Source: an uncultured Candidatus Saccharibacteria bacterium (GTDB lineage Bacteria > Patescibacteriota > Minisyncoccia > Phycocordibacterales > UBA9973). From it: a stretch of DNA of 39,207 nt. A program made the position numbers and the translations under genes. Location: the NCBI GenBank assembly GCA_964369095.1, contig CAYJDV010000002.1:1-39207 (forward strand), in the 5' to 3' direction. Of this stretch, positions 6,163 through 31,057 are shown in pieces. The notes below the pieces were generated by a model. It did no database searches. It had not been told where the DNA came from and saw only the letters and a list, made by a program, of their open reading frames with translations. Numbering within the stretch: position 1 is the stretch's first letter; every line of letters starts with the position of its first letter.

Positions 6163-6555
6163 TTATACCATATTGTGGGGACATTTTCCACCATTTCTAA
6201 ATTTAGCTATATTGCAGTTGTAACACAATATTTGAAAATTATTTTTAGGAAAATTATTATCTCTCAACCATTTGTAAATATTTTGTTTAATAGAATCTCT
6301 ATGGATTTTGCCATCATTATTTATATGGTCTATGGTCAACGCCTCCTTCATTGTCTCACCGCAACAAACACAAATGTTACCGTATTTTTGAAATACTATT
6401 TGTTTTAATGGAATATCATATTCATTTTGAACCCCATGAACACAATTTTTACATTGAGCATGAAGTTTTTTTCCACCCCTTCTTAGTTTGTTGAAATGAT
6501 TTATTGGCTTAAATTCATTACACCTTGTACAAAATTTTTTACCATCTTTAACCAC
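6163..6555 (-). CDS. HNH endonuclease
   Basis: CxxC pairs plus LTIDHINNDGKIHRD...LCYNCNIAKF (H-N-H core). The track start is GTG. See the in-frame upstream extension 6556..6711. Confidence 0.8.
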   Translation of the reverse strand: MVKDGKKFCTRCNEFKPINHFNKLRRGGKKLHAQCKNCVHGVQNEYDIPLKQIVFQKYGNICVCCGETMKEALTIDHINNDGKIHRDSIKQNIYKWLRDNNFPKNNFQILCYNCNIAKFRNGGKCPHNMV

Positions 6556-6711
6556 AGATTTTATTAAAAACCTTGAATAACAATAATGTGAACAAAAAAA
6601 ATTACCAGATATGTTTTTATTTATTTGACTTAAGGTAACATACTTTGGTTTACTACATATTTTACATTTTTTTATTTTTCCATTTTTTGTTATGCAATAA
6701 TCATATCACAT
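6556..6711 (-). pseudogene. In-frame Cys-rich 5' extension of the HNH ORF, cut off by TGA at codon 2 (ATG-TGA)
   Basis: On the minus strand, AGGAGA-N10-ATG (6711-6709) is followed by TGA (6708-6706). Then come 50 sense codons (YDYCITKNGKIKKCKICSKP...CSHYCYSRFLIKS) in frame with the GTG at 6555, with no internal ATG, GTG or TTG. Confidence 0.4.
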
Positions 6712-6748
6712 TTTATTCTATTCTCCTAGCTATGACCACTTGATATAG

Positions 6749-6771
6749 TTTCCCTTGTCGCAAGACGGAAA
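6749..6771 (-). repeat. Conserved hairpin copy B (contains GTCGCAAGAC, 6757-6766)
   Basis: Outer stem tttcc/ggaaa and inner stem gtc/gac. It lies in the 5' UTR of the HNH cassette on the minus strand. Confidence 0.7.
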
Positions 6772-6782
6772 ACGTAATGTAA

Positions 6783-6794
6783 ATATTATACACT
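6783..6794 (-). promoter_or_regulatory. Promoter -10 block AGTGTATAATAT (minus strand)
   Basis: The reverse complement of 6783-6794 equals the 12-mer at 8161-8172. The TATAAT hexamer corresponds to 6790-6785. Confidence 0.5.
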
Positions 6795-6819
6795 AAAACC
6801 CCCACTTTAGGCAGGGGTT
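6795..6819 (-). terminator. Weak intrinsic terminator after the metallophosphoesterase gene
   Basis: On the minus strand, aacccc-N11-ggggtt is followed by tt. Confidence 0.4.
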
Positions 6820-6824
6820 AGAGT

Positions 6825-8048
6825 TTAGTAGAAGTGTGTTATTCGAGCAACTTGACCACCTTGTGGGTCAAAGATGAACGATTCCATTGCTTGGATATTC
6901 TTGTAACCGTTCGTGTAGTGCCACCTGTCTGGTGCTGATGGTGTTCTAACCATTTCCACATAGATAGAGGTTGACTGGTCGACTCCTTGTCGTGAGTGGA
7001 TTTCGGTGATGAGGTGTTTATCCTCCTCAACCATCTCCATACGCTTTGAACCGAGTGTCTTTACCCTCTTGTCTTTGTGGTGTCCGTGGTTAATCAACCA
7101 GTAGCCAAACTTAAACGCTACACCTCGTGCTTCAGTAAGCATAAGGTTTGGGAGGTCTGTTATCTTAGCTCCATCTCCGTGAGAGTAGCCAATCATATTA
7201 TTCCCGTAAACCAAATACTTACGATGTGTCATTGACGTGTGAAAAGACACGTTTTTTGACTTAGAGAACCAACTAACAACAGCGTCAGTTAGCATATACC
7301 CAGACATAAAGTCATGGTTCGATGGACAGAAGACCAACTTCACTGGTGCGTATTGAACAAGTTTTTCAATGGCTTGTATGTAGCACCTTTTAGCAATGTT
7401 GTAAGCTTCCCACCACATACCGTCTGTGTCTTGCGGAGTTCCTGCTGTTGTAGTTCGCTTTGGTGTGTCGATGTGCAAGATGTCGTTCCCAACAACGAAA
7501 ACAATTTGCTCAGGAGGAAATGGTAAGGACTTGGTTATTAGTCCATCAATTCCCTCGTTGAAGCGTTGCTCTGCTATTTTAAGATTGTAGCTTTCGCCAG
7601 TTTCTTCTTTTGCAGAGTATTTGCCAAAGTGTGGGTCAGCGGGGTTCACGTTCCAAAGATACTTTCCGCTGCCTTTATATTTGACAGCTGGATATTTCGG
7701 AGCGTGCTTTTTCATTTCCGCAATGAGGTCATCACGGATTTCTTCGTAGGTCATTACACCTTTTTCGTTGCGTATGAAAATCGAAGCATTGTCGGTTTTT
7801 AGCCAACCATGCGACCAATCTCCAGAGAAGCTATTAGCCTCAAGTTCAACCTCAAAGGTGCTTTTACCACCACCAGTAGCTCGTTGGAATCGCTTGCGAA
7901 CATTTTCTCCGCTCAGTTTTGTTCCGAACTTTGTGTTCGCAATTTCCGCCAACTCTGCATAGGTTTTTCCTCCTCCGACCTCCTTATTAAGAGCGAGTAG
8001 GAAGCTGTTTATGTCTTCTTGCTTGCTCATTTTATTTGTGCTTTTCAT
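6825..8048 (-). CDS. Calcineurin-like metallophosphoesterase (Mre11/SbcD-type motif set) with an N-terminal HTH-like extension
   Basis: The motifs occur in canonical order: ADPHFG (DxH), VVGNDILHID, PSNHDF (GNHD-like), YSHGDG, NHGHHKD (GHxH-like). The N-terminus contains YAELAEIANTKFGTKLSGENVRKRF. The true start may be the Met at 8030. Confidence 0.7.
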   Translation of the reverse strand: MKSTNKMSKQEDINSFLLALNKEVGGGKTYAELAEIANTKFGTKLSGENVRKRFQRATGGGKSTFEVELEANSFSGDWSHGWLKTDNASIFIRNEKGVMTYEEIRDDLIAEMKKHAPKYPAVKYKGSGKYLWNVNPADPHFGKYSAKEETGESYNLKIAEQRFNEGIDGLITKSLPFPPEQIVFVVGNDILHIDTPKRTTTAGTPQDTDGMWWEAYNIAKRCYIQAIEKLVQYAPVKLVFCPSNHDFMSGYMLTDAVVSWFSKSKNVSFHTSMTHRKYLVYGNNMIGYSHGDGAKITDLPNLMLTEARGVAFKFGYWLINHGHHKDKRVKTLGSKRMEMVEEDKHLITEIHSRQGVDQSTSIYVEMVRTPSAPDRWHYTNGYKNIQAMESFIFDPQGGQVARITHFY

Positions 8049-8050
8049 CT

Positions 8051-8059
8051 ATTATATCA
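8051..8059 (-). promoter_or_regulatory. Extended -10 TGaTATAAT (minus strand)
   Basis: Reverse complement of attatatca. It lies so close to the ATG at 8048 that Met-7 (8030) would have to be the start if this promoter is used. Confidence 0.4.
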
Positions 8060-8091
8060 TTGCGATATTTTAATAAAATTTCAACACTTTT

Positions 8092-8100
8092 ATTATCCCA
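8092..8100 (-). promoter_or_regulatory. Extended -10 TGgGATAAT (minus strand)
   Basis: Reverse complement of attatccca. It lies 39 nt downstream of the minus-strand TTATCCACAG motif. Confidence 0.4.
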
Positions 8101-8137
8101 CAAAATTTGACAACACAATAAATTAAATTGTTTAAAC

Positions 8138-8146
8138 TGTGGATAA
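8138..8146 (-). promoter_or_regulatory. Perfect DnaA-box 9-mer TTATCCACA (minus strand), extends to TCCACAG
   Basis: The + strand reads ctgtggataa at 8137-8146, in the divergent intergenic region. Confidence 0.5.
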
Positions 8147-8147
8147 C

Positions 8148-8172
8148 TTGACAAAAGGAAAGTGTATAATAT
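8148..8172 (+). promoter_or_regulatory. Promoter-like TTGACA ... AGTGTATAATAT (plus strand)
   Basis: TTGACA is at 8148-8153 and TATAAT at 8165-8170. The spacer is only 11 nt, so the -35 assignment is doubtful. The 12-mer is shared with 6783-6794. Confidence 0.45.
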
Positions 8173-8189
8173 GCACAAAGCCCTTAACA

Positions 8190-8393
8190 ATGAAAACAAC
8201 ACACCAAGTTCACAAGTGTAAAAATTGCAGAACCGAAATAGGAATTGCAATTACCACAATCGGCACACGCCGAAGTAAAATGAAAGCTTGGCTTTACTGC
8301 GAAGCTTGCTCGTTTCCCCTCGAAATTTGGTGGGACAGCAATCCGCAAGCAGAAGACCCAAGTCAAACCAACATGTTTGAACAAAACAGTTGA
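8190..8393 (+). CDS. Hypothetical small zinc-ribbon-like protein (67 aa), uncertain
   Basis: Internal ATG of track ORF 8139..8393, downstream of the promoter block. Contains CKNC ... CEAC. The stop lies 3 nt before the next start. Confidence 0.3.
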   Translation: MKTTHQVHKCKNCRTEIGIAITTIGTRRSKMKAWLYCEACSFPLEIWWDSNPQAEDPSQTNMFEQNS

Positions 8394-8396
8394 GCC

Positions 8397-8615
8397 ATGA
8401 GTAAGAAAAAGTTTCGCTTTGACTACCATCACCGAGTTCCTCAATCAAAAGGAGGAACTGACTTTTACCCTGAGGGCAACTTAGTACGGGTAAACAAAGT
8501 CAAACACGCACATTGGCATGCCCTATTCGCCAATAGAGACCTTGAGGACATTGTTGAAGAACTCAACAACCTCTGGATAGACCCACGTTTCAAACTCACC
8601 ATTGAACAACGCTAA
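8397..8615 (+). CDS. Small HNH endonuclease
   Basis: DYHHRVPQSKGGTD...N...VNKVKHAHWHALF is a typical short phage HNH signature. Confidence 0.8.
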   Translation: MSKKKFRFDYHHRVPQSKGGTDFYPEGNLVRVNKVKHAHWHALFANRDLEDIVEELNNLWIDPRFKLTIEQR

Positions 8616-8616
8616 C

Positions 8617-8709
8617 ATGGGAATCTTCTTCTGGCTCGCCTTCGTCGTTCTGATGTCGTGGGCAATCTCGCAACTTCTCTTCGGAAACCCTAAAAAGCCA
8701 CCCCGATGA
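8617..8709 (+). CDS. Hypothetical 30-aa membrane peptide, uncertain
   Basis: Hand-translated as MGIFFWLAFVVLMSWAISQLLFGNPKKPPR. ATGA overlap with the next ORF. Confidence 0.3.
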   Translation: MGIFFWLAFVVLMSWAISQLLFGNPKKPPR

Positions 8710-9059
8710 AAAACGAGAAAGTCATAACTCGTCAAATGTTCTGCGAGAGGTGCTTCAAAGCTAACCGACCATACAAAGACAACACGTTCATCGTTCGTGG
8801 AACCAAGGGTTACCACGTTAGAGAAGTGAACAAGTATGTCCCACCAGACAAGAAAGGTTTTACACCTCATCTGGTCGCAGCCTATAAGTTGCTCGATGAT
8901 AAAAACATCGCCATCAACAGGGTTTGCTGTATCGTTGGTTGTGGAGTTTCACTTAAAGACGATGTCTTCACTTATCTGAAGGTTTCCTATGAGCAAGTTC
9001 TGCTCTCTGATTGGAACGCCCTCGTGAAAAGTAAAGACCTCGGATACTACCTAGAATAA
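8706..9059 (+). CDS. Hypothetical protein (117 aa)
   Basis: Track ORF with ATG start, followed by tandem terminators. Confidence 0.55.
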   Translation: MKNEKVITRQMFCERCFKANRPYKDNTFIVRGTKGYHVREVNKYVPPDKKGFTPHLVAAYKLLDDKNIAINRVCCIVGCGVSLKDDVFTYLKVSYEQVLLSDWNALVKSKDLGYYLE

Positions 9060-18580: not shown

Positions 18581-18757
18581 ATGTATCTACCCGTCGAAGA
18601 AATAGACGACAATGATTTCTATCGAGAGAAAAGACAAAAGCAAGCTGAAAAAGAAAAGATAAGACTTCAAGAGGAATGTAAACACAAACACTTTGTTGTT
18701 AGATGTTCTCATTGTAATAGGGTATTAGGAAGTGAAATTAACCATAAAAGGATATGA
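18581..18757 (+). CDS. Hypothetical small protein (58 aa)
   Basis: Hand-translated as MYLPVEEIDDNDFYREKRQKQAEKEKIRLQEECKHKHFVVRCSHCNRVLG.... ATGA overlap with the chaperonin gene. Confidence 0.4.
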   Translation: MYLPVEEIDDNDFYREKRQKQAEKEKIRLQEECKHKHFVVRCSHCNRVLGSEINHKRI

Positions 18758-20187
18758 AAATAATAGAAACAAATATCGAAAAAATAATTTCTGGAATAAA
18801 CAAGACTGCTGATATGTTGTGTCCGACACTTGGCCCATTCGGAACAAACGTAATAATTGGTAGGAAATATCAAAAACCAATTATTGCAAATGATTCTGGA
18901 ACAATCTCGGACAATCTTGTATTTGAAGACGAATCAGAACAAATTGCCTCAGAGATAATAAATGAGGCAACGACTACGGCAGATAAAACAACCCAAGATG
19001 GGAGAACATCAACTGTCGCTATAATGAGACATCTTGTTAACTCTCTGTATAAAAAAACACAAGGTCTCCAAAAGGAAAAACCAAGAAAGCTATACAATAA
19101 AGTTCGAGAAGAATTAGAAACGGCTCAAAAACTACTATTAAAAGAAAAGAAAATTGTCAAAAAGGAGGAAGATTTAAAAAGTGTAGCACTCGGTTCTTCT
19201 CAGAATAAAGAACTTGCAGAGATAATATCTAACACCTTCTGGAAAATAGGAAAAGACGGGGTAATTACGATTGAGGATAATTTCAATCCAGAAATATCAA
19301 TCGTTAAAAAGAACGGACTTGAAATACCATTTAAAATTGTGTCTGACTTTTTAATTAAACAACTTGGACAATCTCCTATTTTAGTTACAACAACAAAGAT
19401 TGATTCAATCAATCAAATAATTCAAATCTATAATGAAATACTAGAAAGGTCTAAATCACAAAAGCTTGGTGTTTATAATTGGGTTATCATTGCCCCAAAC
19501 TTTGAAGACGGGGTAATATCTGAATTTAAGGCATTAGGGGGTGCGTTTGATATTATGCCAATCAAGATTCCTGAATCAAACATTGAGATATACGAGGATA
19601 TTTCAGCAATTTGTGGAACAAAAACATATAAGGGACAACTAGAACTTTTAACATTGTCTGATATTGGAGAACTAAAAGAAATAGTTTCAAATGAAAAAAC
19701 AATAATAACTGGTTCGGTTAGTCCAGATGAACATATAAAATCTCTAAAAGAAAAAGAAATTGACTCTCTTTACGACAAAGAAAGACTTGATAAAAGAATT
19801 GCTAGACTTAAAAACGGAATAGTGGTTTTAAAGATAGGACATAGCCTAGACCAAGACAGGGAGTTTCTTAAACTAAAGGCGAGAGACTGTGTAACCTCTG
19901 TTAAGACGGCACTAAGTGATGGATATGTTAAAGGGGCTGGAGTATCATTAAAGAACGTAGCAGACAAAATGCCGAAAGATAGCATTATCGCAGAATCCTT
20001 AAAAGAGCCATATAGACTAATCCAAGAAAGTAACGGAGGGCCTTTTGAAATACCTGAAAATGTAATAGATTCATATAAAACAGTTGAACAAGAAATTATA
20101 ACATCATGTGTTTTAGCAAGTAATATTATAAACTCACATGGCTCAATAGCAGATAAAACAGAAAAGTCAGAAGACCCTGTGATATAA
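18754..20187 (+). CDS. GroEL/Cpn60-family chaperonin, shortened (477 aa)
   Basis: [30 protein letters not shown] aligns with GroEL's [37 protein letters not shown] corresponds to [65 protein letters not shown] aligns with [55 protein letters not shown]. Confidence 0.85.
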   Translation: [477 protein letters not shown]

Positions 20188-20196
20188 TATACATAT

Positions 20197-20439
20197 ATGA
20201 AAACGATAAAATCATCTTATAGAAAACTTCCAGGCAATAAAGCCACTGAAGCAAAATCAATCACAAGAAAAACAAAAAGAAAAACTGTAATTAAGACAGG
20301 TATGTTAAATACTGATTACGGAATGGGTAAGACAACAACAAGTGGATATAAAACTAAAATCAAATACGGAAAGTCAGGGGGAATAAAGAAAGCAAAAACA
20401 AAAAGAATGGGTGCTTATAAAACAATAAACATGATGTAG
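20197..20439 (+). CDS. Lysine-rich highly basic small protein (80 aa)
   Basis: Track ORF. About a quarter of its residues are Lys, with several Arg. No GroES-like motif. Confidence 0.55.
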   Translation: MKTIKSSYRKLPGNKATEAKSITRKTKRKTVIKTGMLNTDYGMGKTTTSGYKTKIKYGKSGGIKKAKTKRMGAYKTINMM

Positions 20440-20506: not shown

Positions 20507-20947
20507 GTGAACCCAAAAGAGAACCAAAGGTTTGCTTATCTTGCGAGGGATAATATGGAAGACGTAGAAAAAACAGGGGAACAGTTTAAAAACAGCTATG
20601 AAATCTTAGAAAATGAGAAGGAACAAGAATCTAAGAAAAGAGCTGAACACTTAGCCCCCTATCAATATAAGAAAGGACAATCAGGCAATCCATCTGGTCG
20701 CCCTAAAGGTATTTCCCTTAAGGAATACGCTAAGATGAAACTTGTTCATATGACAGATGAAGAGAAGGAGGAGTTTTTTAATGGTATAGACAAACGTGTT
20801 ATCTGGGAAATGGCAGAGGGTAAGGCCGAAGCTAAAACAGATATAACCTCACAGGGGGAAAGGCTTGTATTTGTACCACCAGTAGTTACAGAAAGATTTA
20901 ACTTAAATGAATCTAACGAAAAAACAGGAGGAGTTTCTAGCCAATAG
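20507..20947 (+). CDS. terS: Terminase small subunit-like protein
   Basis: The QSGNPSGRPKG motif is common in small-terminase-like (DUF5681-type) proteins. The gene lies immediately upstream of TerL. AAGGAG sits 10 nt before the GTG at 20507, with an alternative ATG at 20555. Confidence 0.6.
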   Translation: MNPKENQRFAYLARDNMEDVEKTGEQFKNSYEILENEKEQESKKRAEHLAPYQYKKGQSGNPSGRPKGISLKEYAKMKLVHMTDEEKEEFFNGIDKRVIWEMAEGKAEAKTDITSQGERLVFVPPVVTERFNLNESNEKTGGVSSQ

Positions 20948-22124
20948 AGCAAGATATAAGTTTGCTAACTGGGGAAGAAGAAGTGGTAAAACCACAATGT
21001 TTGCCTATGAAGCACTGGGTACTGCTCTTTCTGTTGATAATGCGAGGGTTACATACTACGCCCCAACAGTATCAGATGCCAGAGATATTGCGTGGGGACT
21101 ATTTCAAGAAGTATTTGGTCAAGCTGTTGTAAAGAAAAACGAAACACTACTAGAGCTGACTATTTTAAATAAATTTGGTACTACATCTTTAGTGGTACTA
21201 AGAGGATGGGAATCAGTTGTAATTGGAGAAAAAGGAAGAGGAGTCGAAAACGATTTACTTATATTTGATGAGGTTGCCTTTTGTAGAAACTTTAAAGAAT
21301 TTTGGGTTAAAACACTAGAGCCAACACTTCTAACTTCTAAGGGAAGAGCCGTGTTTGCCTCTACACCAGACGGATTTAACCACTGGTATTCTATGTGCAA
21401 CGAAGCACAAAACAATCATAATGATTTTTACTCTCATGCAACATCATACGATAACCCATTTAACGACCCAGTAGAACTACAAAGAATAAAAGAATCAAGA
21501 ACAGAAGACGCTTTTGCTCAAGAATATCTAGCAGACTTTAGAAAAACAGAGGGATTAGTCTACAAAGAATTTAACAGGGAGAACCACATATTCGATGATT
21601 TCACAAACAAGGGACAGATAATAAGGAGAATATCAAGTGTGGACTTTGGATATAAAAACCCATCGGCGATATATCTAATCGAAGTAAACTATGATAATCA
21701 TTATTGGATTTCAAATGAGTTCTATAAGACAGGTAAACTAAACGCAGAGCTAATTGAATATATAATCTCAATGAAAACTGAGGCTGTATATCCAGACCCA
21801 GCAGAGCCAGATAGACTAAAGGAAATGGAGAACGCTGGGTTAAATGTTCAAGAGGTTTCAAAAGACGTAGAGAAAGGAATTGATAGCGTTAGAAATCTGT
21901 TTAAAACAGGAAGAATACATATCCATAAGGAATGTGAAAATCTAATAAATGAACTAGAATCATATCGATATAAAGAAAAAAGACACGGCTCAAACGAACC
22001 CGAAGACCCAATCAAAGAAAACGACCACGCTTGCGACTCAATCAGATATGCTCTTTATAACATTCAACCAATATCTTATGGTGAAGATGAAAACTTCTCA
22101 CTCTACAAAACATCCTACAAATAG
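20907..22124 (+). CDS. terL: Terminase large subunit
   Basis: Walker A-like WGRRSGKTT and Walker B-like LLIFDEVAF. C-terminal nuclease-type motifs VDFGYKNPSA and NDHACDSIRYALY. Confidence 0.85.
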   Translation: MNLTKKQEEFLANRARYKFANWGRRSGKTTMFAYEALGTALSVDNARVTYYAPTVSDARDIAWGLFQEVFGQAVVKKNETLLELTILNKFGTTSLVVLRGWESVVIGEKGRGVENDLLIFDEVAFCRNFKEFWVKTLEPTLLTSKGRAVFASTPDGFNHWYSMCNEAQNNHNDFYSHATSYDNPFNDPVELQRIKESRTEDAFAQEYLADFRKTEGLVYKEFNRENHIFDDFTNKGQIIRRISSVDFGYKNPSAIYLIEVNYDNHYWISNEFYKTGKLNAELIEYIISMKTEAVYPDPAEPDRLKEMENAGLNVQEVSKDVEKGIDSVRNLFKTGRIHIHKECENLINELESYRYKEKRHGSNEPEDPIKENDHACDSIRYALYNIQPISYGEDENFSLYKTSYK

Positions 22125-22147
22125 TGGTATGTTATAATAACAAATAT

Positions 22148-23938
22148 ATGGCAATATCTAAGAAAAACAAATCAGCAATAGAAGAAATGGCATTAAGAAT
22201 TGTTGATGAGGAACGAAGTAATTGGGAAGACGCAATCTGTTACGTTACTGAAGACGTTGGATTCAAAATGCGTGCAATGATTAGAACCTTTAGAAAGAAC
22301 TACTGGGGAGTATTTGATAGTCCAACAGACCCAAACACAGGATTAGATAAGTTCTGGTTTCACTTAGCAATGAAGACGGTGGAAGATATTGTAAAGAATA
22401 TTGATATTGATTCTAAAGACGTTAACTACAGAGCTAAGAATCCAGATGGACAAGAAATAACTGAGGTTGTTCGAGCTTGGGTAAAAGAATGGCTAGATAA
22501 AAACTATTTTGGAGAAACTCTTGATGAAACAGAGCGACAAGCATGTATTGACGGAACTGTTGTTTGGAAAACATGGTTAAACGGAAAGAAAATTGAAAGA
22601 CGAACAGTTGACCTACTGCACGTTTACATAAACCCCGTAGAAGATAATATTCAATCAGCTTATAGATTTACCGAACGAGGAATAATGACACCAAGTCAAA
22701 TAGCTGGAATGACAGGTTGGATGAACACAGGAGAAATAAAGGGTTCACAAGGTTTAGACTTCAACGATTCTGAAAGAATGTCGGCAAACGCAATGCCAAC
22801 AACAGGAAGTTTTGCAGACGTTTGGGAAATGTGGGGAAAGATTCCAGAAAGCTTAATTACAGGTAAGGCAAAAGACACTAAAGAAATTGACGGACACATA
22901 ATTGTTTCTGGTCTTGAATCTGGAGATAGGAGAGTTCACCTAATCGAAAAGAACAACAACCAAGACGTTGATGGAAATATAATCAAACCATATGAAGAAC
23001 TAAGATTGGTAAAAGTATCTGGGCGATGGTATGGACTTGGATTTATTGAGAGACTACTTGCTCTTCAAGAATACCTAAACGCAACAATGAACATGAGAAT
23101 AAACAAGGCGAGAGTTTCTCAACTTGGATTATTTAAGATACGAAAGGGTGCTGGAATCACACCACAAATGTTGGCGAATCTACCATCAAATGGAGTTGTA
23201 TCTCTAACAAACATGGCAGACCTTGAGCCGATGATGATTCCACCAGTAGACGGAAGCTCATATAAAGATGAGGAAGTTATTAAAGAGTGGGCGTCTGGAG
23301 TTACTCAAGCATACCCAGCCTCAACAGGTGAAGAAACCCCAGCATCTAAATCAGCCACAGCGGTTGCGGTTGAATCTTCTGGTTCTAAGTCTGCTTATGT
23401 TATGTCAAAGAACGCCATTAACTCATTTATTGAGCGATGGTCTGACAGACAACTTCTACCAAAACTTGCTAAGGTAATGCCTAAAGATGAACTACTAAGA
23501 ATAATGTCTGACGATGGAAAGTTTAAAGAGATAACAGAACGAGTTGTTAAGTATTACGCTCACGAAAACATGAAAGAGGGTAAATTCCCTAATTCTGAAC
23601 AAGAAATGATGGTTGCTATTGATAACGCAAGAGAAGCACTTCTTAAAAAGGATGGATTATTCTTCAAACTTGTTCAAGATATTGTCGCAAAGAATATTGA
23701 CACTAAAGTATACGCAACTAATGAATCAATGAACCCAGGTGTTGTTATTGCAAACCTACTTCAAACACTACAAATTGCCCCAGAGTATAAGGAACCAATA
23801 GTTAAAGAAGTATTTAACTTAATGGGAATAAACATACCAAATCTTCCAAAGATTCAACCAAACCCAGAAGAAAATATTTCGCAAGCACCAATGGCGATGC
23901 CAACAGAACAAGGAGTGTTACAAGACTCATTGACTTAA
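22148..23938 (+). CDS. Portal protein (called on position and size)
   Basis: About 597 aa, directly after TerL and before the scaffold and capsid genes. I prefer the ATG at 22148 over the track's GTG at 22124. Confidence 0.6.
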   Translation: MAISKKNKSAIEEMALRIVDEERSNWEDAICYVTEDVGFKMRAMIRTFRKNYWGVFDSPTDPNTGLDKFWFHLAMKTVEDIVKNIDIDSKDVNYRAKNPDGQEITEVVRAWVKEWLDKNYFGETLDETERQACIDGTVVWKTWLNGKKIERRTVDLLHVYINPVEDNIQSAYRFTERGIMTPSQIAGMTGWMNTGEIKGSQGLDFNDSERMSANAMPTTGSFADVWEMWGKIPESLITGKAKDTKEIDGHIIVSGLESGDRRVHLIEKNNNQDVDGNIIKPYEELRLVKVSGRWYGLGFIERLLALQEYLNATMNMRINKARVSQLGLFKIRKGAGITPQMLANLPSNGVVSLTNMADLEPMMIPPVDGSSYKDEEVIKEWASGVTQAYPASTGEETPASKSATAVAVESSGSKSAYVMSKNAINSFIERWSDRQLLPKLAKVMPKDELLRIMSDDGKFKEITERVVKYYAHENMKEGKFPNSEQEMMVAIDNAREALLKKDGLFFKLVQDIVAKNIDTKVYATNESMNPGVVIANLLQTLQIAPEYKEPIVKEVFNLMGINIPNLPKIQPNPEENISQAPMAMPTEQGVLQDSLT

Positions 23939-24311: not shown

Positions 24312-24911
24312 ATGTACGATGAAAATCAAGAGTTAATTAACGATAACGACCTAATTGGTGATGCTAGCAACGACAACGTTGAATCATCAATCTCAGAATC
24401 GTCTGACTCTCAACCTACCCAAGCACAAGTTGAGAATCTTTCGTTAGATGAACTCAATAGGTATTTGGGTAAAAACTACCCAAACAAGGATTCAGCTTTA
24501 AAGTCATTAAAAGATACTTTTAGCTATGTGGGTAAAAAGAAAGAAACTGTTGTCAAAGAGGCTTTCGATGAAAACAAGTTTATTTCAAGGGAACAATACG
24601 AAGAAGACATGTTCTTCTCTCGTAACCCAGAATACACAACTCCTGAAATGAAAGAGATTATTAAATCAATGGCAAAAGCTGACGGCATTAGACCATCAGA
24701 TGTTGTTGAAAAAGACTCATTCAAAAAAGTGTTTGGGGCGGTTAAGGGATATTCAGAATCACAGAACTTAAAGTCTGTGCTTGAAACAAATCCACGTATA
24801 GCTCAAACAAAATCATTACTGAAAGAAGCCCAAGAAGCAAAAATGTCTGGTAACAAAGTGTTAGCAGAAGAACTTGCAACTAAAGCGGTGATGGATGCGT
24901 ACGAGATGTAA
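24312..24911 (+). CDS. Scaffolding protein candidate (199 aa)
   Basis: Acidic, helical-looking sequence lying between the portal and capsid genes. Confidence 0.5.
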   Translation: MYDENQELINDNDLIGDASNDNVESSISESSDSQPTQAQVENLSLDELNRYLGKNYPNKDSALKSLKDTFSYVGKKKETVVKEAFDENKFISREQYEEDMFFSRNPEYTTPEMKEIIKSMAKADGIRPSDVVEKDSFKKVFGAVKGYSESQNLKSVLETNPRIAQTKSLLKEAQEAKMSGNKVLAEELATKAVMDAYEM

Positions 24912-24934: not shown

Positions 24935-25861
24935 ATGGCATTAACAAACTCATATCTTACTTACGGAGATACATCACGAAAGGAAGATGTTGTACTAAAC
25001 TCAATCGAAACATTGACAGCGGAAGAAAACTTCCTGTTGACAACTCTTGGTAAAACAGAAGCGATTGACACAGTTCACTCTTACCTAACTGATTCATTAC
25101 AAACACCAGCGTCTGGAGCGGTAGCAATGGGAACTGATTTCACACCTAACGCACTTACTCAACCAGCTCGACTTACAAACATTGTTGAAGAAATGGAGCA
25201 AACTATTCTTGTATCACGACCACAAGAAAAAGTTCAGCACTACCACGGACAAAACGAAACACAAAGACAAACAACAAAGGCTCTTAAAGACTGGGGTAAC
25301 TCAGCAGAATACGACCTTCTACGTTCAACTTTGGTTTCTGGAGTTTCTGGAACAACTGCAAAAATGAATGGAGTTATCGCTGCGATTTCTAAATCAACAA
25401 ACACAACTGCACACACATCTGGAACAGTATTTTCTGCAACAATCCTAGACGGACTTATGCAAGCAAACTGGGAAAACTCAAATGGCGATGTAGCAACTGA
25501 CCTTGTTGTTGGAGGAGTAATGCGAAGAGTAGTTGACAACTTTGTACAAAAGTCAAACATCGTAGTTAATAACCCGTCTTCTGTGTCTAACATTGTAAAG
25601 ACAGTTACAACTTACGAAACGGCTTTTGGAACAATTTCAATCAACCTACACCGATACATTCAAGAATCTGGTGATGCGACAGGAAGAGTTCTAGCAATTC
25701 GACCTGACAAACTAAAGATTGCTTACCTAGACAGACCAATGATTAAAGATTTGGCTGAAGGTGGAGCATACACAAAGAAAGCTGTTTATGGTTCTTGTAC
25801 TCTAGAAGTACGAAACCAAGATTCAAACTTCTTTGCATCTGGATTCCTAAAATCTGCGTAA
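24935..25861 (+). CDS. Major capsid protein (SU10-type / DUF5309-like)
   Basis: The N-terminus (TYGDTSRKEDVVLNSIETLTAEENFLLTTLGKTEAIDTVHSYLTDSL) follows the pattern I recall for this capsid family. Position and size also fit. Confidence 0.7.
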   Translation: MALTNSYLTYGDTSRKEDVVLNSIETLTAEENFLLTTLGKTEAIDTVHSYLTDSLQTPASGAVAMGTDFTPNALTQPARLTNIVEEMEQTILVSRPQEKVQHYHGQNETQRQTTKALKDWGNSAEYDLLRSTLVSGVSGTTAKMNGVIAAISKSTNTTAHTSGTVFSATILDGLMQANWENSNGDVATDLVVGGVMRRVVDNFVQKSNIVVNNPSSVSNIVKTVTTYETAFGTISINLHRYIQESGDATGRVLAIRPDKLKIAYLDRPMIKDLAEGGAYTKKAVYGSCTLEVRNQDSNFFASGFLKSA

Positions 25862-25934: not shown

Positions 25935-26234
25935 ATGAATACAACCAAAAATAAAATAAAGAACGTTGTTAAACTATATTCGGAAATGTTTAGTGAAGAA
26001 TACAAACAATTCCAAAAGGAATCAGACGAAAGAAGAAGACTTGTACGAGATGAATTTGCCACAATTAAAGATACACAATACATTCAAAGGGCATTATTCT
26101 CAATCCCTGAAAAGTTACACGTGGCACTAATTAAAAACCTAACAGATGAAGAACTAAAATACTGGAAGACAAAAGAGTGTGCTAGATGGTTCGCTAAAAC
26201 ATTCCCAGTATTTACTCTTCCTAAAAAAATATAA
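25935..26234 (+). CDS. Hypothetical protein (99 aa)
   Basis: Track ORF. TAATG overlap with the next gene. Confidence 0.55.
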   Translation: MNTTKNKIKNVVKLYSEMFSEEYKQFQKESDERRRLVRDEFATIKDTQYIQRALFSIPEKLHVALIKNLTDEELKYWKTKECARWFAKTFPVFTLPKKI

Positions 26235-28558
26235 TGAAAGTAGCACTAAGTCTGATTGTAAAAGGAACAGATGAGGAAGCAATACTACTAGACAGATGTC
26301 TGGAGAGTGTATCTCCTTTTGTTGATGGAATATTTATAACCTCGACGCATAAAAAGGGTGACAAACCAAACGAATCAGTTGCTAAGATTGCAAAACTATA
26401 CAACGCAAACCTTTCTACTTTTGAATGGGTAAATGACTTTGCCAAAGCGAGAAACTTTAACTTCTCACAAGTAACAAAAGACTTTGATTACATTATGTGG
26501 TGCGATGCCGATGATGTGTTCAGAGGACTTGAGAAACTAAAACCAACCCTAGAAGAAAATAAAACAGTTGACGTGTTTGCTTTCTGGTATTTGTATGATT
26601 TTGATGAATTTAAGAATCCGACAGTTGTACACAAGAAAAGCCAGCTGGTAAAAAACAATGACTGTGTATATTGGGAAGGCTCACTACACGAAGACTTCGT
26701 AGCTAACAGAGAACTTAACACTAAGTTTATCGAGGGTATAGAACGATTACACTTAACAACACAAGAAAGATTTGAAGTTGCTAAAGGAAGAAACATAGAA
26801 GTTGCACAACACCACACAGAGGAAAAGCCAGAAGACCCACGCTCTTGGTGGAATCTTGCCAACTCCTATTTTGGAGCTGGAGAATATACTAAAGCTAAAG
26901 AATGTTTTGATAAGTTCTATAAAATGTCTCAATCGGAAGATGAAAAGTATTTAGTTAGACTAAGACTTGCACAGATTGAAAAGAGTTTAGGAAACCATGA
27001 TGACGCCGTACTAAACCTGCAAATAGCAATCGGAATGAAGCCAGAGATACCTGATTCATATCTACAAATGGGTCAAATGTATTCTGATTTTAACCTGCTT
27101 GATAAGGCTGAGAAGTTCTTACTACTTGGATTAAAAATGAAGCCACAGTATCACGGGATTATTGTGTATAACCCACGAGACTATGACTACAATCCAATGA
27201 TGCAATTAGCACAGGTTTACTTCAAGAAGAATAGACCAGACCTTGCTCTTAAAATGCTTAAGGGGTGTCTCGCAATCGTACCAGAAAGCGACTACATAAA
27301 AGGACTTGTAAAAGAAATGGAAAAAGAACAAACACGAGTGGAGGAAGTGGTTAAACTTGCTATCAAATTAGACACAATAAAGGATAAGGTTAAACTTAAA
27401 AAGGCACTAGACAAGATACCTAAAGACCTACAATCACACCCAAAGATAAACCAAATCAGAAACCAAAACTTTATTAAGGAAACTTCAACAGGTAAAGATA
27501 TTGCATACTTCTGTGGATTTACAGACCATGTTTGGAATCCTGAAATATTCAAGACAAAAGGCTTTGGTGGTTCAGAGGAGGCGGTGGTTAATCTGTCTAA
27601 GGAGTGGGCTAAACGGGGCTATAACGTAACTGTATACAATAACTGTGGTACGGAAGAGATGACTGCTGACGGGGTTAAGTACAAACCATTCTGGACATTC
27701 AACTCAAAGGATAAGTGGGACTACTTAATTCTTTGGAGACACCCACGCATGCTTGATTACGAAGTAAATGCTACAAATGTTTACGTTGATATGCACGACG
27801 TCGTACCGAAAGGAGAGTTTACAGAATCACGACTCGCTAAGGCCAAGAAGATTCTATTTAAAACAAACTTCCACAGAAACCTATTTCCAAACATACCAGA
27901 TGATAAATGTGAAATAATACCAAACGGAATGGACTTTGAATTGTTCAATCAAGACGTTAAGAAAGACCAATACTTGCTTGTAAACACTTCTTCACCTGAT
28001 AGGTCAATGGATGTTATGCCCAAACTATTCAAGATGATTAAGGAACGTGTACCCAACGCTAAAATGAAATGGTCATATGGCTGGGATGTGTTTGATTCTG
28101 CTCACGGAGATAATAAAGTTATGATGGCGTGGAGACATAAACTACAAAAAGAAATTGACGAAGCTGGTATTGAATCACTTGGTAAAATACCACAATCAGA
28201 ATGTGCTAAACTTTACCTAGAGGGAAATGTTCTAGCCTATCCATCAGAGTTTGCCGAGATTGATTGTATCTCTGTTAAGAAGGCACAGGCTTGCGGAGCT
28301 ATTCCAGTAACAACAGACTTCGGAGCATTTAATGAAAGTGTGCAGTTCGGGGTAAAAATACACTCAGATAAAACAAATGAAACTTGGGCTAAGGATTATC
28401 AAATGAGTTTCGGGCTTGAAGATGAAACTAAACAAAAGGAATGGGTTGAAGCGGTGGTTAAATTATTAGAAACCCCTATTGAGAATCGTGATGAAATGAA
28501 AGAATGGACAAAGAAATTCTCTTGGGACTTAATATCAAATAAATGGTTATGTCAATAG
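26234..28558 (+). CDS. Three-module glycosyltransferase: GT-A (GT2-like), TPR repeats, GT-B (GT4-like), 774 aa
   Basis: aa 1-190: ALSLIVKG...LDRCLESV...WVNDFAKARNF...WCDADDV (DxD at 26504-26515). aa ~203-352: TPR-like helices (WWNLANSYFGAGEYTKAKECF, YLQMGQMYSDFNLLDKAEKFLLLGL, LAQVYFKKNRPDLALKML). aa ~421-774: GFGGSEEAVVNLSKEWAKRGYNVTVY and YPSEFAEIDCISVKKAQACGAIPV. Confidence 0.75.
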   Translation: MKVALSLIVKGTDEEAILLDRCLESVSPFVDGIFITSTHKKGDKPNESVAKIAKLYNANLSTFEWVNDFAKARNFNFSQVTKDFDYIMWCDADDVFRGLEKLKPTLEENKTVDVFAFWYLYDFDEFKNPTVVHKKSQLVKNNDCVYWEGSLHEDFVANRELNTKFIEGIERLHLTTQERFEVAKGRNIEVAQHHTEEKPEDPRSWWNLANSYFGAGEYTKAKECFDKFYKMSQSEDEKYLVRLRLAQIEKSLGNHDDAVLNLQIAIGMKPEIPDSYLQMGQMYSDFNLLDKAEKFLLLGLKMKPQYHGIIVYNPRDYDYNPMMQLAQVYFKKNRPDLALKMLKGCLAIVPESDYIKGLVKEMEKEQTRVEEVVKLAIKLDTIKDKVKLKKALDKIPKDLQSHPKINQIRNQNFIKETSTGKDIAYFCGFTDHVWNPEIFKTKGFGGSEEAVVNLSKEWAKRGYNVTVYNNCGTEEMTADGVKYKPFWTFNSKDKWDYLILWRHPRMLDYEVNATNVYVDMHDVVPKGEFTESRLAKAKKILFKTNFHRNLFPNIPDDKCEIIPNGMDFELFNQDVKKDQYLLVNTSSPDRSMDVMPKLFKMIKERVPNAKMKWSYGWDVFDSAHGDNKVMMAWRHKLQKEIDEAGIESLGKIPQSECAKLYLEGNVLAYPSEFAEIDCISVKKAQACGAIPVTTDFGAFNESVQFGVKIHSDKTNETWAKDYQMSFGLEDETKQKEWVEAVVKLLETPIENRDEMKEWTKKFSWDLISNKWLCQ

Positions 28559-28962
28559 CATCAAAATACGAAGATATGGGTGTAGACCCATTACTAGCAA
28601 CAGAACTTATGGATTTACTCGGAATATATCCAGATGATTTTATAGACCAAAGAAGATTCGAGAAGTTTAAAGACGTTGCAAGATATATTGGTAAGTTTGA
28701 AAACTATCAGTATATGATTAAGAAACTAACATTGGCAAAGAATGTGGACAAGTTAACCCATATCTGGGAATGGTGCGAGTTGTCTAAGCAAAAAGCTGAC
28801 GCAGATAGTCAAATAGATTCTGTATCGCTTGAAGATTCTGAAATGACTGGAATGGTAAACAATCGAGAGGGAATGGAAAAACTATCTAAGATACAAAACC
28901 TATTAAAGGAAAACATAAACAAGTCTTCTAAGTTAGACGAGGAGATGAAGCTATATGGCTAA
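28543..28962 (+). CDS. Hypothetical acidic protein within the glycosylation cassette (139 aa)
   Basis: Track ORF. It overlaps both neighbouring genes. Confidence 0.55.
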   Translation: MVMSIASKYEDMGVDPLLATELMDLLGIYPDDFIDQRRFEKFKDVARYIGKFENYQYMIKKLTLAKNVDKLTHIWEWCELSKQKADADSQIDSVSLEDSEMTGMVNNREGMEKLSKIQNLLKENINKSSKLDEEMKLYG

Positions 28963-29857
28963 GATTGCGTTTGTGTGGCAAGGGATAGACGGAAGATATG
29001 GACACTGGCAAGATGGCCTGTGGCTTGCCATGAAGCACTTAGAGAAAGAATTTGAGGTAACATATCATGACATATATGAAGACATACCCGAGGATTCAAT
29101 CGTATTGTATTGGGAAGCACCTTGTACAATTAACGGAGAGTTTGGAGCTAACTATAAACGAATACAGAACCTACCAAACAAAAAGATTTTACTCTTTGCT
29201 GGTGGTCCCATTAAAAAAGAATGGGTTGATGGTTTTGATATGGTATGTGTAGAGAGTAAGTTAAACAAAGATGAGTTCGACGCTATCGGTGTTCCGAACA
29301 TAACAGCGTTTGGAATCAATGACGAGATATTCAAACCACTTAACTTGCCTAAGAAATACAAAGCAATCCATCAAGGAACTTCTGCTAGTTGGAAAAGACA
29401 ATGGCTTATGGCAGAGGCATTTAGAGAGGGTGCGTTGCTCGTTGGAAGATACCAAGAATCAGACCCAAGACCGTTTGACGATTCTCGCAAGCTGGGAGCT
29501 ACAATACTAGACGAAAAACCATACCCAGAAATTGCTAAGTTAATAAACGAATCAGAAGTGTTAGCACAAACATCAGAGTATTGGGGTGGTGGTCAACGTG
29601 CAACCTTAGAAGCTATGGCTTGTGGTGTTCCAGTAATCTGTATGACAGATAGTCCAAAGAATCGTGAGTATGTAGAAGAGAGTGGAGCTGGCTTAATTTG
29701 TGAACCAGACGCTAATAGTATAAGACGTGCGTACGATGAAATTATGACATGGACAGATGAAGAAAAAATGCGAGGTGTAGAGTATGTAAAAAATAAATGG
29801 ACAGGTAAACATTATTCAGAGAATTTAAAGAAAGCAATTTATGCCATCAACTCCTAA
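28955..29857 (+). CDS. Glycosyltransferase, GT-B fold (group 1-like)
   Basis: SEYWGGGQRATLEAMACGVPVICMTDSPKNREYVEESGAGLICEP is a typical GT1/GT4 C-terminal signature. Confidence 0.7.
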   Translation: MAKIAFVWQGIDGRYGHWQDGLWLAMKHLEKEFEVTYHDIYEDIPEDSIVLYWEAPCTINGEFGANYKRIQNLPNKKILLFAGGPIKKEWVDGFDMVCVESKLNKDEFDAIGVPNITAFGINDEIFKPLNLPKKYKAIHQGTSASWKRQWLMAEAFREGALLVGRYQESDPRPFDDSRKLGATILDEKPYPEIAKLINESEVLAQTSEYWGGGQRATLEAMACGVPVICMTDSPKNREYVEESGAGLICEPDANSIRRAYDEIMTWTDEEKMRGVEYVKNKWTGKHYSENLKKAIYAINS

Positions 29858-30446
29858 AGACCACTTCCAATATACGATTCAAGAATGGAGTAACGACCCA
29901 TTTAAGGAAATCCTAAACAAGGTTAAAGACATTAAAGTTGTCTATGATATTGGTGCAAACTCTGGCGGGTTTTCATTCCTACTTGATTCACTTTTTGATG
30001 ATTTAGATATTTACTGCTTTGAACCAGTTGGAAGAAACTTTGATGAACTTAAAAAGAATATGCCGAACGCCAAATGCCTAAAGTACGGAATCTATTATGG
30101 AGAAAGAGAATCAAGAATACTTTGGCGAGGGGAGAATTGTGGTGCCTTCTTTGTTGAACATGTTAATTCTGGTGAACCAAGAGTTGACATTGGGGAAAGG
30201 GTTGAACTTAGGGAATTAGAAGAACTAAAACTTCCGAAACCAGACCTAATTAAGATTGACATTGAGGGGGCAGAAGAAAATGTAATACCAAACTCTAAGA
30301 TAATTAAAGATACTAAATACTTAATTATTGAATGGCATCCAGACCACGTTCCAGTATTAGACTTCTTTAAAGAACACCTACCCAAACATAAGATTATTCA
30401 CAATATAGAAAACAGACAATTTCTTTTATGCCTAGAATCAGCGTAA
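29841..30446 (+). CDS. FkbM-family methyltransferase
   Basis: VYDIGANSGGFSF (SAM-binding glycine motif) and LIKIDIEGAEENV (the FkbM signature). Confidence 0.7.
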   Translation: MPSTPKDHFQYTIQEWSNDPFKEILNKVKDIKVVYDIGANSGGFSFLLDSLFDDLDIYCFEPVGRNFDELKKNMPNAKCLKYGIYYGERESRILWRGENCGAFFVEHVNSGEPRVDIGERVELRELEELKLPKPDLIKIDIEGAEENVIPNSKIIKDTKYLIIEWHPDHVPVLDFFKEHLPKHKIIHNIENRQFLLCLESA

Positions 30447-31057
30447 TCACCCCGTCGATACGCCCAGAGGGACTTAAAATCGTTCAAGAATGTTTAAAGA
30501 ATCAAACATTTACTGATTTTGAATGGCTTGTTGAGGTTGGATTAGGGAACAAACATGATTTAAACAATGCTTTTAATAAAATGCTCAAACGTGCAAGTGG
30601 TGAACTCATAGTTTTCTACCAAGATTACATAAAAATAGAGAATGACGGATTGGAAAAGTTTTGGAATGAGTATCAAAAGGATAAAAACTATCTAATAACC
30701 GCACCCGTTGGAAAATCAGATGACTATACTAACCCAAAGTACGATTGGAGGGCTTTTAAATACGAAGATATAGGCTTTCAGGGGTGGGAAATAGACTGGG
30801 GAGCTTGTCCAAAATCAATTCTCTTTGAGATTGGTGGATTTAATGAAGAACTAGATAAATACTGGTCGTTTGATAACGTAGACGTTGCATATAGAGCTTT
30901 AAAGCACGGGTATAAGTTTAAATGTATTGACAATAAGTCAGTCGCCAAAGACCACGACAAAACAGAAAAGCACCCATTTAGAGAATTGTTTAACCCTAAA
31001 CATAATAACGAGATGCTATCAAACATTGACAAAGGGAACCACAAAAAGTGGATATGA
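30428..31057 (+). CDS. Glycosyltransferase family 2-like
   Basis: The N-terminal PRISVITPSIRPEGLKIVQECLKNQTFTDFEWLV is typical of GT2. Confidence 0.6.
   Translation: MPRISVITPSIRPEGLKIVQECLKNQTFTDFEWLVEVGLGNKHDLNNAFNKMLKRASGELIVFYQDYIKIENDGLEKFWNEYQKDKNYLITAPVGKSDDYTNPKYDWRAFKYEDIGFQGWEIDWGACPKSILFEIGGFNEELDKYWSFDNVDVAYRALKHGYKFKCIDNKSVAKDHDKTEKHPFRELFNPKHNNEMLSNIDKGNHKKWI

Follow-up and report, generated by a model that had tools for sequence, protein, structure and literature searches.

A short group I chaperonin encoded beside the terminase and head genes of a 39-kb uncultured phage

Here we analyzed a chaperonin gene carried by contig CAYJDV010000002.1 (assembly GCA_964369095.1), a stretch of 39,207 nucleotides that is referred to below, at its full length, as the window. 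The gene lies at positions 18754–20187 on the + strand, as do all features given below unless stated otherwise, and encodes a short group I chaperonin (GroEL/Cpn60 homologue) of 477 amino acids (aa); a preliminary description made from the sequence alone had both coordinates and length right. The protein is beyond doubt a genuine group I chaperonin homologue of the Cpn60/TCP-1 superfamily, and it is neither a GroEL equivalog nor a group II chaperonin. It falls into a large, phage-specific family of short chaperonins that is apparently undescribed so far. In an SU10-like, short-tailed phage of ~39 kb, no other large gene precedes it in the late transcription unit for packaging and head proteins. 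The reading we favor, with roughly even confidence, is that of a phage-specific, minimized group I chaperonin, likely independent of a co-chaperonin and with a weakened or absent ring interface, which would serve head morphogenesis. We infer this mechanism from residue mapping, synteny and analogy.

The preliminary description had placed the protein in the GroEL family and proposed a Cpn60_TCP1 profile search. Against the Pfam model (PF00118), the whole protein scored 68.7 bits, above the cut-off of 34.3 (E 5.3e-19), and the family assignment was also borne out by PHROG 5725 'chaperonin groEL' (E 7e-50), by phmmer and by the predicted structure. Using phmmer with the window chaperonin as query, the best match among PDB sequences was an Enterococcus GroEL (2.8e-36). 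E. coli GroEL aligned to residues 10–406 at 6e-30, and the phage chaperonins EL gp146 and OBP gp246 matched at 1e-10 and 2e-5, respectively. An AlphaFold2 (AF2) model based on a 55-sequence alignment reached a pLDDT of 87.7 and a pTM of 0.80. When this model was searched with Foldseek, all of the top 50 PDB matches listed were group I chaperonins, the best being ATP-bound mtHsp60 (8g7l, TM 0.84), and in the BFVD library viral GroELs came out on top, AR9 among them (E 2e-31). Together, AF2 and Foldseek indicate the three-domain fold of equatorial, intermediate and apical domains. The protein remains far below the GroEL equivalog cut-off of TIGR02348 (140.1 vs 582.1 bits) and below those of NF000592 (158 vs 397) and NF009487 (152 vs 352), failing all GroEL subfamily models, which E. 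coli GroEL and one GroEL of the candidate phyla radiation (CPR) passed as positive controls. Its sole group II match was to CCT-theta, at 17.7 bits over the N-terminal equatorial segment. Foldseek favors group I, and the apical domain is shorter than that of GroEL, not longer as expected of a group II lid protrusion.

To locate the shortening, we used a residue map built from an alignment of the protein to E. coli GroEL (from NC_000913) plus relatives; E. coli numbering is used for equivalent residues. The total shortfall is 71 aa. The preliminary description had put the loss in the apical region, at roughly 35 aa, which proved wrong: the apical domain (E. coli 191–376) has 170 residues instead of 186, a net loss of 16, and the main losses are in the C-terminal part of the equatorial domain and in the GGM tail. 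A deletion of 11 aa corresponds to E. coli 429–439 (LRGQNEDQNVG, including Glu434) and is placed by the alignment at 19969–19989. A larger deletion of 25 aa corresponds to E. coli 464–488 and removes most of helix Q together with the β-hairpin that carries Asn479, Ala480 and Ala481, leaving a short loop of 10 residues in the alignment (20035–20064). Across E. coli 425–442 the window chaperonin thus has 7 residues for 18, and across 460–492 it has 8 for 33. In the AF2 model, DSSP assigns aa 427–440 to a loop between two helices, where GroEL has helix Q and the β-hairpin. The 15-aa GGM tail is missing, and the protein ends instead in a charged C-terminal tail of 12 residues (20149–20184) with the IADKxE motif that is kept in the clade described below. 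Smaller differences are an N-terminus 5 aa shorter than that of E. coli GroEL, small indels in the N-terminal equatorial part (1 aa lost at E. coli 157 and 2 aa gained, net +1 aa), and a remodeled helix H–I region, with a 6-aa insertion, a 2-aa deletion and loss of V263 and V264 of helix I.

The nucleotide pocket is partly conserved and partly changed. The segment TLGPFGTN (aa 25–32; 18826–18849) corresponds to E. coli T30–N37 and retains the phosphate/K+-site loop. The catalytic and metal residues D52, D87 and D398 are all present, as are the T30-L-G-P segment (with G32 and P33), G35, N37, S151, G414, G416 and D495. The phosphate-binding loop reads QDGRTST (aa 81–87; 18994–19014; E. coli G86–A92). 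Compared with E. coli GDGTTT, it keeps Asp87, Gly88 and Thr90, and Thr89 is replaced by Arg (aa 84) and Thr91 by Ser. A second arginine, at aa 377, occupies the place of Glu397 immediately before the retained Asp398, in the segment ARDCV (aa 376–380; 19879–19893). The segment KGAGV (aa 393–397; 19930–19944) corresponds to A413–V417 with Gly415 changed to Ala, so both variant motifs named by the preliminary description, QDGRTST and GAG, stand in the alignment. In GroEL, according to molecular dynamics and structure, the hydrogen bonds to the β- and γ-phosphates that persist longest come from Thr89 and Thr91, with Thr89 bonding the β-phosphate; Asn479 and Ala480 touch the adenine and Asp495 the ribose (PMC3053311). 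The net result is a pocket that keeps the ribose contact along with its metal-binding and catalytic residues, with two of the three P-loop threonines changed and the adenine hairpin gone. An altered ATPase chemistry, as had been suggested earlier, is therefore plausible, given Thr89Arg, the deleted 479–481 hairpin and the retained Asp52, Asp87 and Asp398. Further substitutions are K51N, G53S, D83K and R197F. D83 and R197 are partners of allosteric salt bridges in GroEL.

Residues at the ring–ring contact are largely lost. E434 and V464 are deleted, E461 is replaced by Pro and S463 by Glu, and R452 alone is kept. The single-ring GroEL mutant SR1 (Weissman et al. 1995) reportedly carries R452E/E461A/S463A/V464A; three of these four positions are changed or deleted in the window chaperonin (E461P, S463E and the loss of V464). 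Most apical substrate-binding positions (199, 203, 204, 234, 237 and 259) are still hydrophobic.

The closest relatives of the window chaperonin form an uncultured clade of equally short proteins. Searched exhaustively with HMMER, a set of 1.84 billion cluster representatives yielded 8109 matches at E ≤ 1e-3, of which 278 reached E ≤ 1e-30, and most of the top 150 are 470–530 aa long. Clade statistics refer to 160 of the strong homologues, taken as 50%-identity clusters and aligned with E. coli GroEL. The 464–488 deletion is common to 136 of the 160, nearly all of which also lack 429–439, and in a 28-sequence clade alignment the tails are charged, with a conserved IADKxE and without GGM repeats. 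The window chaperonin has both deletions, the charged non-GGM tail and a length within the same range. Because the deletions are shared by 136 clusters, the shortening is an old, clade-defining trait rather than decay in this genome. Most short-clade clusters keep [AV]GDGTT[TS] and GGG, with GAG in place of GGG in 21 of 136, and conservation across the clade is concentrated on the nucleotide pocket and the hinge glycines. The best cellular matches of the window chaperonin are GroELs of CPR bacteria (26–28% identity), no cellular GroEL exceeds 30%, and the G+C content of the gene (0.32–0.33) is close to that of the genome. An identical protein is present in public data on a contig of 39,207 bp. 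A protein search with a clade profile found mostly cellular GroELs and one further clade member (P0157). Single-protein scans of GTDB genome contigs and of IMG/VR yielded no close relatives, the two genome matches being ordinary cellular GroELs, and an IMG/VR profile scan gave at least 587 GroEL-like loci with generic patterns, mostly of full-length type, which were not used further. Our literature search, which did not take in all journals, found no paper on a short-equatorial clade, on its tie to ~40-kb SU10-like phages or on the Arg89 variant, and none linking SU10-type capsids with GroEL.

The arginine at position 89 is not unique to the window. Of 134 short-clade clusters, 17 have it, and these are spread over a rough neighbor-joining tree; in the Arg89 subclade the loop reads TQDGRTS in the window, TKDGRTS in P0002, SADGRTT in P0121 and VGNGRKS in P0122. 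Several other positions co-vary with it, in counts that are not phylogenetically corrected and that compare 17 Arg89 clusters with 117 Thr/Ser89 clusters. Thr90Lys occurs in seven of the former and none of the latter, Glu397Lys in 7 vs 3, Arg58Asp in 8 vs 3 and Gly53Ala in 6 vs 1; Pro496Ser also co-varies. This pattern suggests that the pocket has been remodeled recurrently and in a coordinated way, not damaged at random. In two members of the clade, P0190 (852 aa; L101:564–3122) and P0228 (833 aa), a LAGLIDADG-type intein of ~340 aa sits precisely where GDG meets T(S/T)T in the same loop. Since inteins typically occupy such sites in functionally essential motifs, the insertions point to a functional pocket within the clade.

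We found no co-chaperonin gene in the window, in agreement with the preliminary description. Among its 48 small open reading frames (ORFs) there is no Cpn10 at E < 0.067 with Pfam or at E < 6e-5 with PHROGs, there is none among the large ORFs, and phmmer with E. coli GroES gave a best E of 1.9 against the window. As a positive control, the divergent phage GroES of MW202566 was detected over its full length by Pfam Cpn10 at E 0.003. Nor does a Cpn10 gene adjoin the chaperonin in any of the ten short-clade contexts examined. Directly downstream of the chaperonin gene lies an ORF for an 80-aa protein (20197–20439) that is rich in Lys and Arg (29% combined, isoelectric point 10.7) and has no Pfam or PHROG match, which bears out the earlier remark that it is not GroES-like. 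We considered it as a cryptic co-chaperonin and rejected this, because it lacks any family match, is basic and of low complexity, and is absent from one of the relatives (L097). It is 57% identical to its homologue in the closest relative (L002), and this conservation in the closest relative only indicates that it is not an obligate chaperonin partner.

The window itself is a complete phage genome. Its first 52 bases recur unchanged as its last 52, and an ORF of 1320 aa that begins at 35924 continues in frame across the junction to 731; from this overlap and the continuous frame, the window corresponds to a circle of 39,155 bp. The large terminase subunit (TerL), portal protein, SU10-type major capsid protein (MCP) and SU10 adaptor, together with the circular junction, confirm the 39-kb phage proposed at the outset. 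The capsid protein is at most 26% identical to that of any GenBank phage, so the lineage is an uncultured one. Downstream of the chaperonin and the 80-aa ORF, the late genes encode a probable small terminase subunit (TerS; 20507–20947; DUF5681 and PHROG 'terminase small subunit'), TerL (20907–22124; Terminase_6N 3e-16, Terminase_3C 1e-12, phrog_2 2e-50), the portal protein (22124–23938; SU10-type in relatives), a scaffold-like protein of 199 aa (24312–24911) and the SU10-type MCP (24935–25861; PF17236, 7e-47). The chaperonin had been called the last gene before the terminase; it does lie just ahead of the terminase and head block, but the 80-aa ORF and a possible 36-aa ORF come between. Upstream, a 58-aa ORF with a zinc-ribbon-like C-x-H...C-x-x-C motif (18581–18757) ends in a TGA stop that overlaps the chaperonin ATG (ATGA), which suggests translational coupling between the two. 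A homologue in L002 (219–428; 43% identity, 69 aa) also overlaps the GroEL start, and the motif common to both is C-x-H...RCS-x-C-x-x-(V/I)LGSE. L097 lacks the zinc-ribbon-like ORF, and there a dGTP_diPhyd_N-like ORF overlaps the GroEL start. No terminator-like site was found on the + strand between 15.0 and 26.3 kb, which together with the ATGA overlap fits co-transcription of the chaperonin with the late genes.

This arrangement is conserved among relatives. We fetched ten independent short-clade contexts, on contigs of 18–42 kb, several of them complete at 38.5–42 kb. In nine of the ten, the GroEL gene adjoins the TerS, TerL, portal and MCP genes, upstream of them in eight and directly after the MCP gene in one. 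The order seen in the window (L001, 39.2 kb, the reference at 100% identity), with GroEL followed by small ORFs, TerS-like, TerL, portal and SU10 capsid genes, recurs in L002 (GroEL 54% identical; 20.3 kb, partial), L097 (37%; 38.5 kb, of identical length in two samples) and L100 (32%; 41.1 kb). It also recurs with an MCP of Phage_capsid_4 type in L003 (30%; 40.9 kb), L005 (26%; ~37 kb, 19 contigs) and L009 (27%; 31 kb), and with a weak Mu-like gpT capsid match in the intein-bearing L101 (31%; 25 kb). In L007 (29%; 18 kb), GroEL directly follows an SU10 capsid gene, and L099 (30%; 42 kb) is a partial exception in which a short minus-strand block separates GroEL from a putative terminase. The position beside terminase, portal and capsid genes is thus kept in relatives down to ~26% identity, and this synteny supports the late or morphogenesis role that the preliminary description had proposed. 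TerL itself has been exchanged in L002: the window protein (20907–22124) is 29% identical to that of L002 (2835–4055) and 57% identical to that of L097 (12039–13250), although the capsid proteins of the window and L002 are still 88% identical. The GroEL gene is followed closely, on its downstream side, by the mosaic boundary.

Although its place is constant, the GroEL sequence is not. Between the window and L002 or L097, identity is 88% or 78% for the MCP, 75% or 62% for the portal and 76% or 70% for the TPR-glycosyltransferase, and only 54% or 37% for GroEL. This makes GroEL the fastest-diverging large late gene of the three genomes, yet one that never changes its place. Cellular GroEL, in contrast, is among the most conserved proteins. 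Such rapid divergence fits a chaperonin with one or few clients, since a restricted set of clients would account for its faster evolution compared with neighboring genes.

Among characterized chaperonins, those of the jumbo phages EL, OBP and AR9 offer the closest functional parallel. They need no co-chaperonin, and those of OBP and AR9 are single rings (PMC9598537). In the EL chaperonin, helix Q (462–471) is replaced by a loop, the ring interface is altered, the D83–K327 and R197–E386 salt bridges are absent and GroES is not bound (PMC7185714). The window chaperonin resembles EL gp146 (6TMT), OBP gp246 (6HDD) and AR9 gp228 as a phage GroEL homologue without a phage co-chaperonin and, by its lost contact residues, in an altered ring–ring interface. 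It differs in other respects. The jumbo-phage proteins are distant in sequence (1e-10 for EL and 2e-5 for OBP, vs 3e-36 for bacterial GroEL) and are not its closest relatives, they are ~515–560 aa long with insertions where the window chaperonin has 477 aa and deletions, and their genomes exceed 200 kb compared with 39 kb here. Their known substrate is endolysin, whereas the synteny in the window points to head and packaging proteins. Bacterial GroEL shares the group I fold (Foldseek E 1e-33 to 1e-30, TM 0.75–0.84), but the window chaperonin is only 23% identical to it, is 71 aa shorter, has no adjacent groES and sits in a late phage operon. The SR1 mutant and mtHsp60 are similar in that three of the four SR1 positions are altered and E434 is deleted in the window chaperonin, and in that mtHsp60 is its best structural match; they remain dependent on a co-chaperonin and have a complete equatorial domain, and the window chaperonin retains R452.

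GroEL genes are also known from other phages, and the view in the preliminary description that they are confined to jumbo phages is outdated. Marine et al. (2017) described a GroEL-only clade from virioplankton and inferred GroEL-carrying viruses of >70 kb, sampling sequences that had to span E. coli residues 8–514 (PMC5649160), and metagenomes from the sea and from soil are known to contain viral GroELs (PMC5649160, PMC8390657). Like the short clade, that GroEL-only clade comprises divergent proteins of uncultured viruses with conserved ATP/Mg sites and no neighboring GroES; the short clade differs in its 464–488 deletion and in its contigs of at most 42 kb. We counted 117 GenBank phage records with GroEL-like genes, including crAss-like and Cellulophaga phages of ~100 kb and phages of 39–43 kb. 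The latter are two complete Manatee Spring phages with annotated groeL, MW202566 (38,956 bp) and MW202497 (42,941 bp). They resemble the window in their ~40-kb genomes and in having GroEL beside terminase and portal genes, and MW202497 also in a distantly related MCP (25.5% identity) and in glycosyltransferases flanking groEL. However, their GroELs are of full-length type (541 and 522 aa) and only 25–27% identical to that of the window. MW202566 differs further in a probable GroES gene directly upstream of groeL. This ORF (MW202566.1, 5695–6018), annotated 'mhsp60', matches Pfam Cpn10 over its full length at E 0.0031 and 17.9 bits, below the cut-off, and is probably a divergent GroES, which would make a GroES–GroEL pair in another small phage.

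In the mechanism we favor, the protein would form heptameric rings that touch back to back only weakly or not at all, giving a single-ring or ring-separating chaperonin that, like those of EL, OBP and AR9, needs no dedicated co-chaperonin. Its ATP cycle would run on a remodeled pocket with Arg89, Ser91, Ala415 and Arg397 and without the 479–481 hairpin. Newly made head proteins would be kept assembly-competent, with the SU10-type capsid protein as the most likely client and the portal as a possible one. Several observations weigh against this proposal. The alignment near the deletions is only moderately certain, and R452, one of the four residues mutated in SR1, is retained. With its mostly hydrophobic residues, the apical groove could still accommodate a GroES mobile loop. 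Thr89Arg could cripple ATP binding instead of modifying it, and Asp87 is lost in 5 of 17 Arg89 clusters compared with 1 of 117 Thr/Ser89 clusters. Fast evolution could mean relaxed constraint on a nearly dispensable gene. Finally, the characterized phage chaperonins act on endolysin, not on a capsid protein (PMC9598537), which makes synteny circumstantial evidence for the client. A more specific version, which we regard as a tentative suggestion, is that the short clade represents a minimal autonomous single-ring chaperonin that has lost the ring–ring interface and the adenine hairpin and is tuned to one client, the SU10-type capsid protein of ~40-kb phages. In the recurrent Arg89 lineages, with or without Lys90 and Lys/Arg397 and with the window chaperonin among them, the positive side chain would replace the contacts of the monovalent cation or the Thr hydroxyl at the β/γ-phosphate. 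These lineages would then have a changed nucleotide specificity or a K+-independent ATPase.

A competing explanation, which we consider possible but less probable than the favored mechanism, is a canonical foldase that borrows host GroES, with the phage supplying extra or customized large subunits as a mirror image of T4 gp31. The hydrophobic apical positions 199, 203, 204, 234, 237 and 259 and the catalytic core would be in keeping with this. Marine et al. raised host GroES use for GroEL-only viruses (PMC5649160), and in another small phage, MW202566, the gene for a full-length GroEL is accompanied by a GroES-like one. However, the window chaperonin has lost V263 and V264 in a remodeled H–I region, its salt-bridge residues are changed (D83 to K, R197 to F), the GGM tail is missing and no Cpn10 gene adjoins it in the short-clade contexts examined, while the best-studied analogue, the EL chaperonin, does not bind GroES (PMC7185714). 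We are more doubtful of a nucleotide-independent or hydrolysis-dead holdase, in which an Arg89/Arg397 pocket would turn over no ATP and the ring would merely shield late proteins. This would account for the change of both Thr89 and Thr91, the strongest hydrogen-bond donors to the phosphates, and for the deleted adenine hairpin (PMC3053311), as well as for the excess of Asp87 loss, Thr90Lys and Glu397Lys in the Arg89 group, and the EL chaperonin prevents aggregation whether or not ATP is present (PMC9598537). It is harder to reconcile with the retention of D52, D87, D398, T30, G32, P33, T90 and D495 in the window chaperonin and with the conservation of DGRTST between two homologues that are 54% identical. 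The hairpin deletion is also found in ~110 clusters with a canonical GDGTT[TS], two of which have the intein inserted there.

It is unlikely that the protein acts in host takeover or outside folding, either by co-assembling with or titrating host GroEL/GroES or as a structural or scaffolding part of the virion. Its rapid divergence relative to structural genes resembles that of host-interaction genes, and in L007 and MW202497 the gene lies inside the structural module. However, conservation falls on the nucleotide pocket and hinge glycines, as for a working chaperonin, and the inter-subunit equatorial core that mixed rings would need has diverged (23% identity). Least probable by far is a recent host-derived fragment or a decaying, functionless pseudogene. 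Here the reduced length and non-canonical motifs could be cited, along with a close relative (L096; ENA ERZ1714332 contig_4844, 39,060 bp) whose GroEL is broken into pieces of 155, 41 and 192 aa. The window gene is nevertheless an intact ORF with a confident AF2 model and conserved synteny, its deletions are ancient and shared by 136 clusters, and its identity to cellular GroELs of at most 30%, its place in a deep phage clade and its genome-like G+C content effectively refute recent host origin, which the preliminary description had named as grounds for abandoning its claim. We also rejected the broken gene of L096 as a sign of dispensability: because its MCP and other genes are equally fragmented, L096 appears to be a frameshift-rich, error-prone assembly rather than a case of pseudogenization.

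Phage GroELs have been considered a possible third chaperonin group, with only three jumbo-phage examples characterized. The short clade, with at least 136 clusters at 50% identity of ~470–530-aa chaperonins in ~40-kb phages, extends phage chaperonins beyond giant phages, and as a family it is of more interest than the single gene. Its members are natural 'minimal GroELs', devoid of the GGM tail, helix Q, the adenine hairpin and most residues that join the two rings, and with no co-chaperonin apparent. As a compact system, they could show what a chaperonin ring requires, and the recurrent Thr89Arg with its co-varying changes is a natural experiment on the P-loop. They also make it possible to test whether certain capsid folds depend on a folding machine of their own despite scarce genome space.

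Besides the late genes, the window encodes a block of a TPR-glycosyltransferase, a glycosyltransferase and an FkbM-methyltransferase, a holin, and NinG and HNH nucleases. The block (26234–31057) lies directly 3' of the capsid gene and is conserved also in L002, L007, L097 and L100. It contains a 774-aa GT2-like/TPR/GT4-GT1 fusion, a 139-aa ORF, a 300-aa GT1 glycosyltransferase, an FkbM-type methyltransferase and a weak GT2-like ORF, and glycosyltransferases also surround GroEL in L003 and MW202497. The block may be involved in glycosylation of the virion or the host surface, and its large multidomain enzyme is an alternative client for the chaperonin. The 1320-aa ORF that wraps around the junction has a weak GNAT acetyltransferase match at aa 730–797 (E 3.5e-4, below the cut-off), and a 220-aa ORF at 69–731 is merely its C-terminus. 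An apparent ORF-free region of 3.3 kb at 35.9–39.2 kb was rejected, as it is this same wrapping ORF, with no Rfam match and no repeats. No integrase was detected among the window ORFs scanned. The otherwise + strand genome is interrupted by a minus-strand island at 6163–8870, which has a G+C content of 0.41–0.44 compared with ~0.35 and holds a 407-aa DNA-repair exonuclease (PHROG 704, 6.5e-62).

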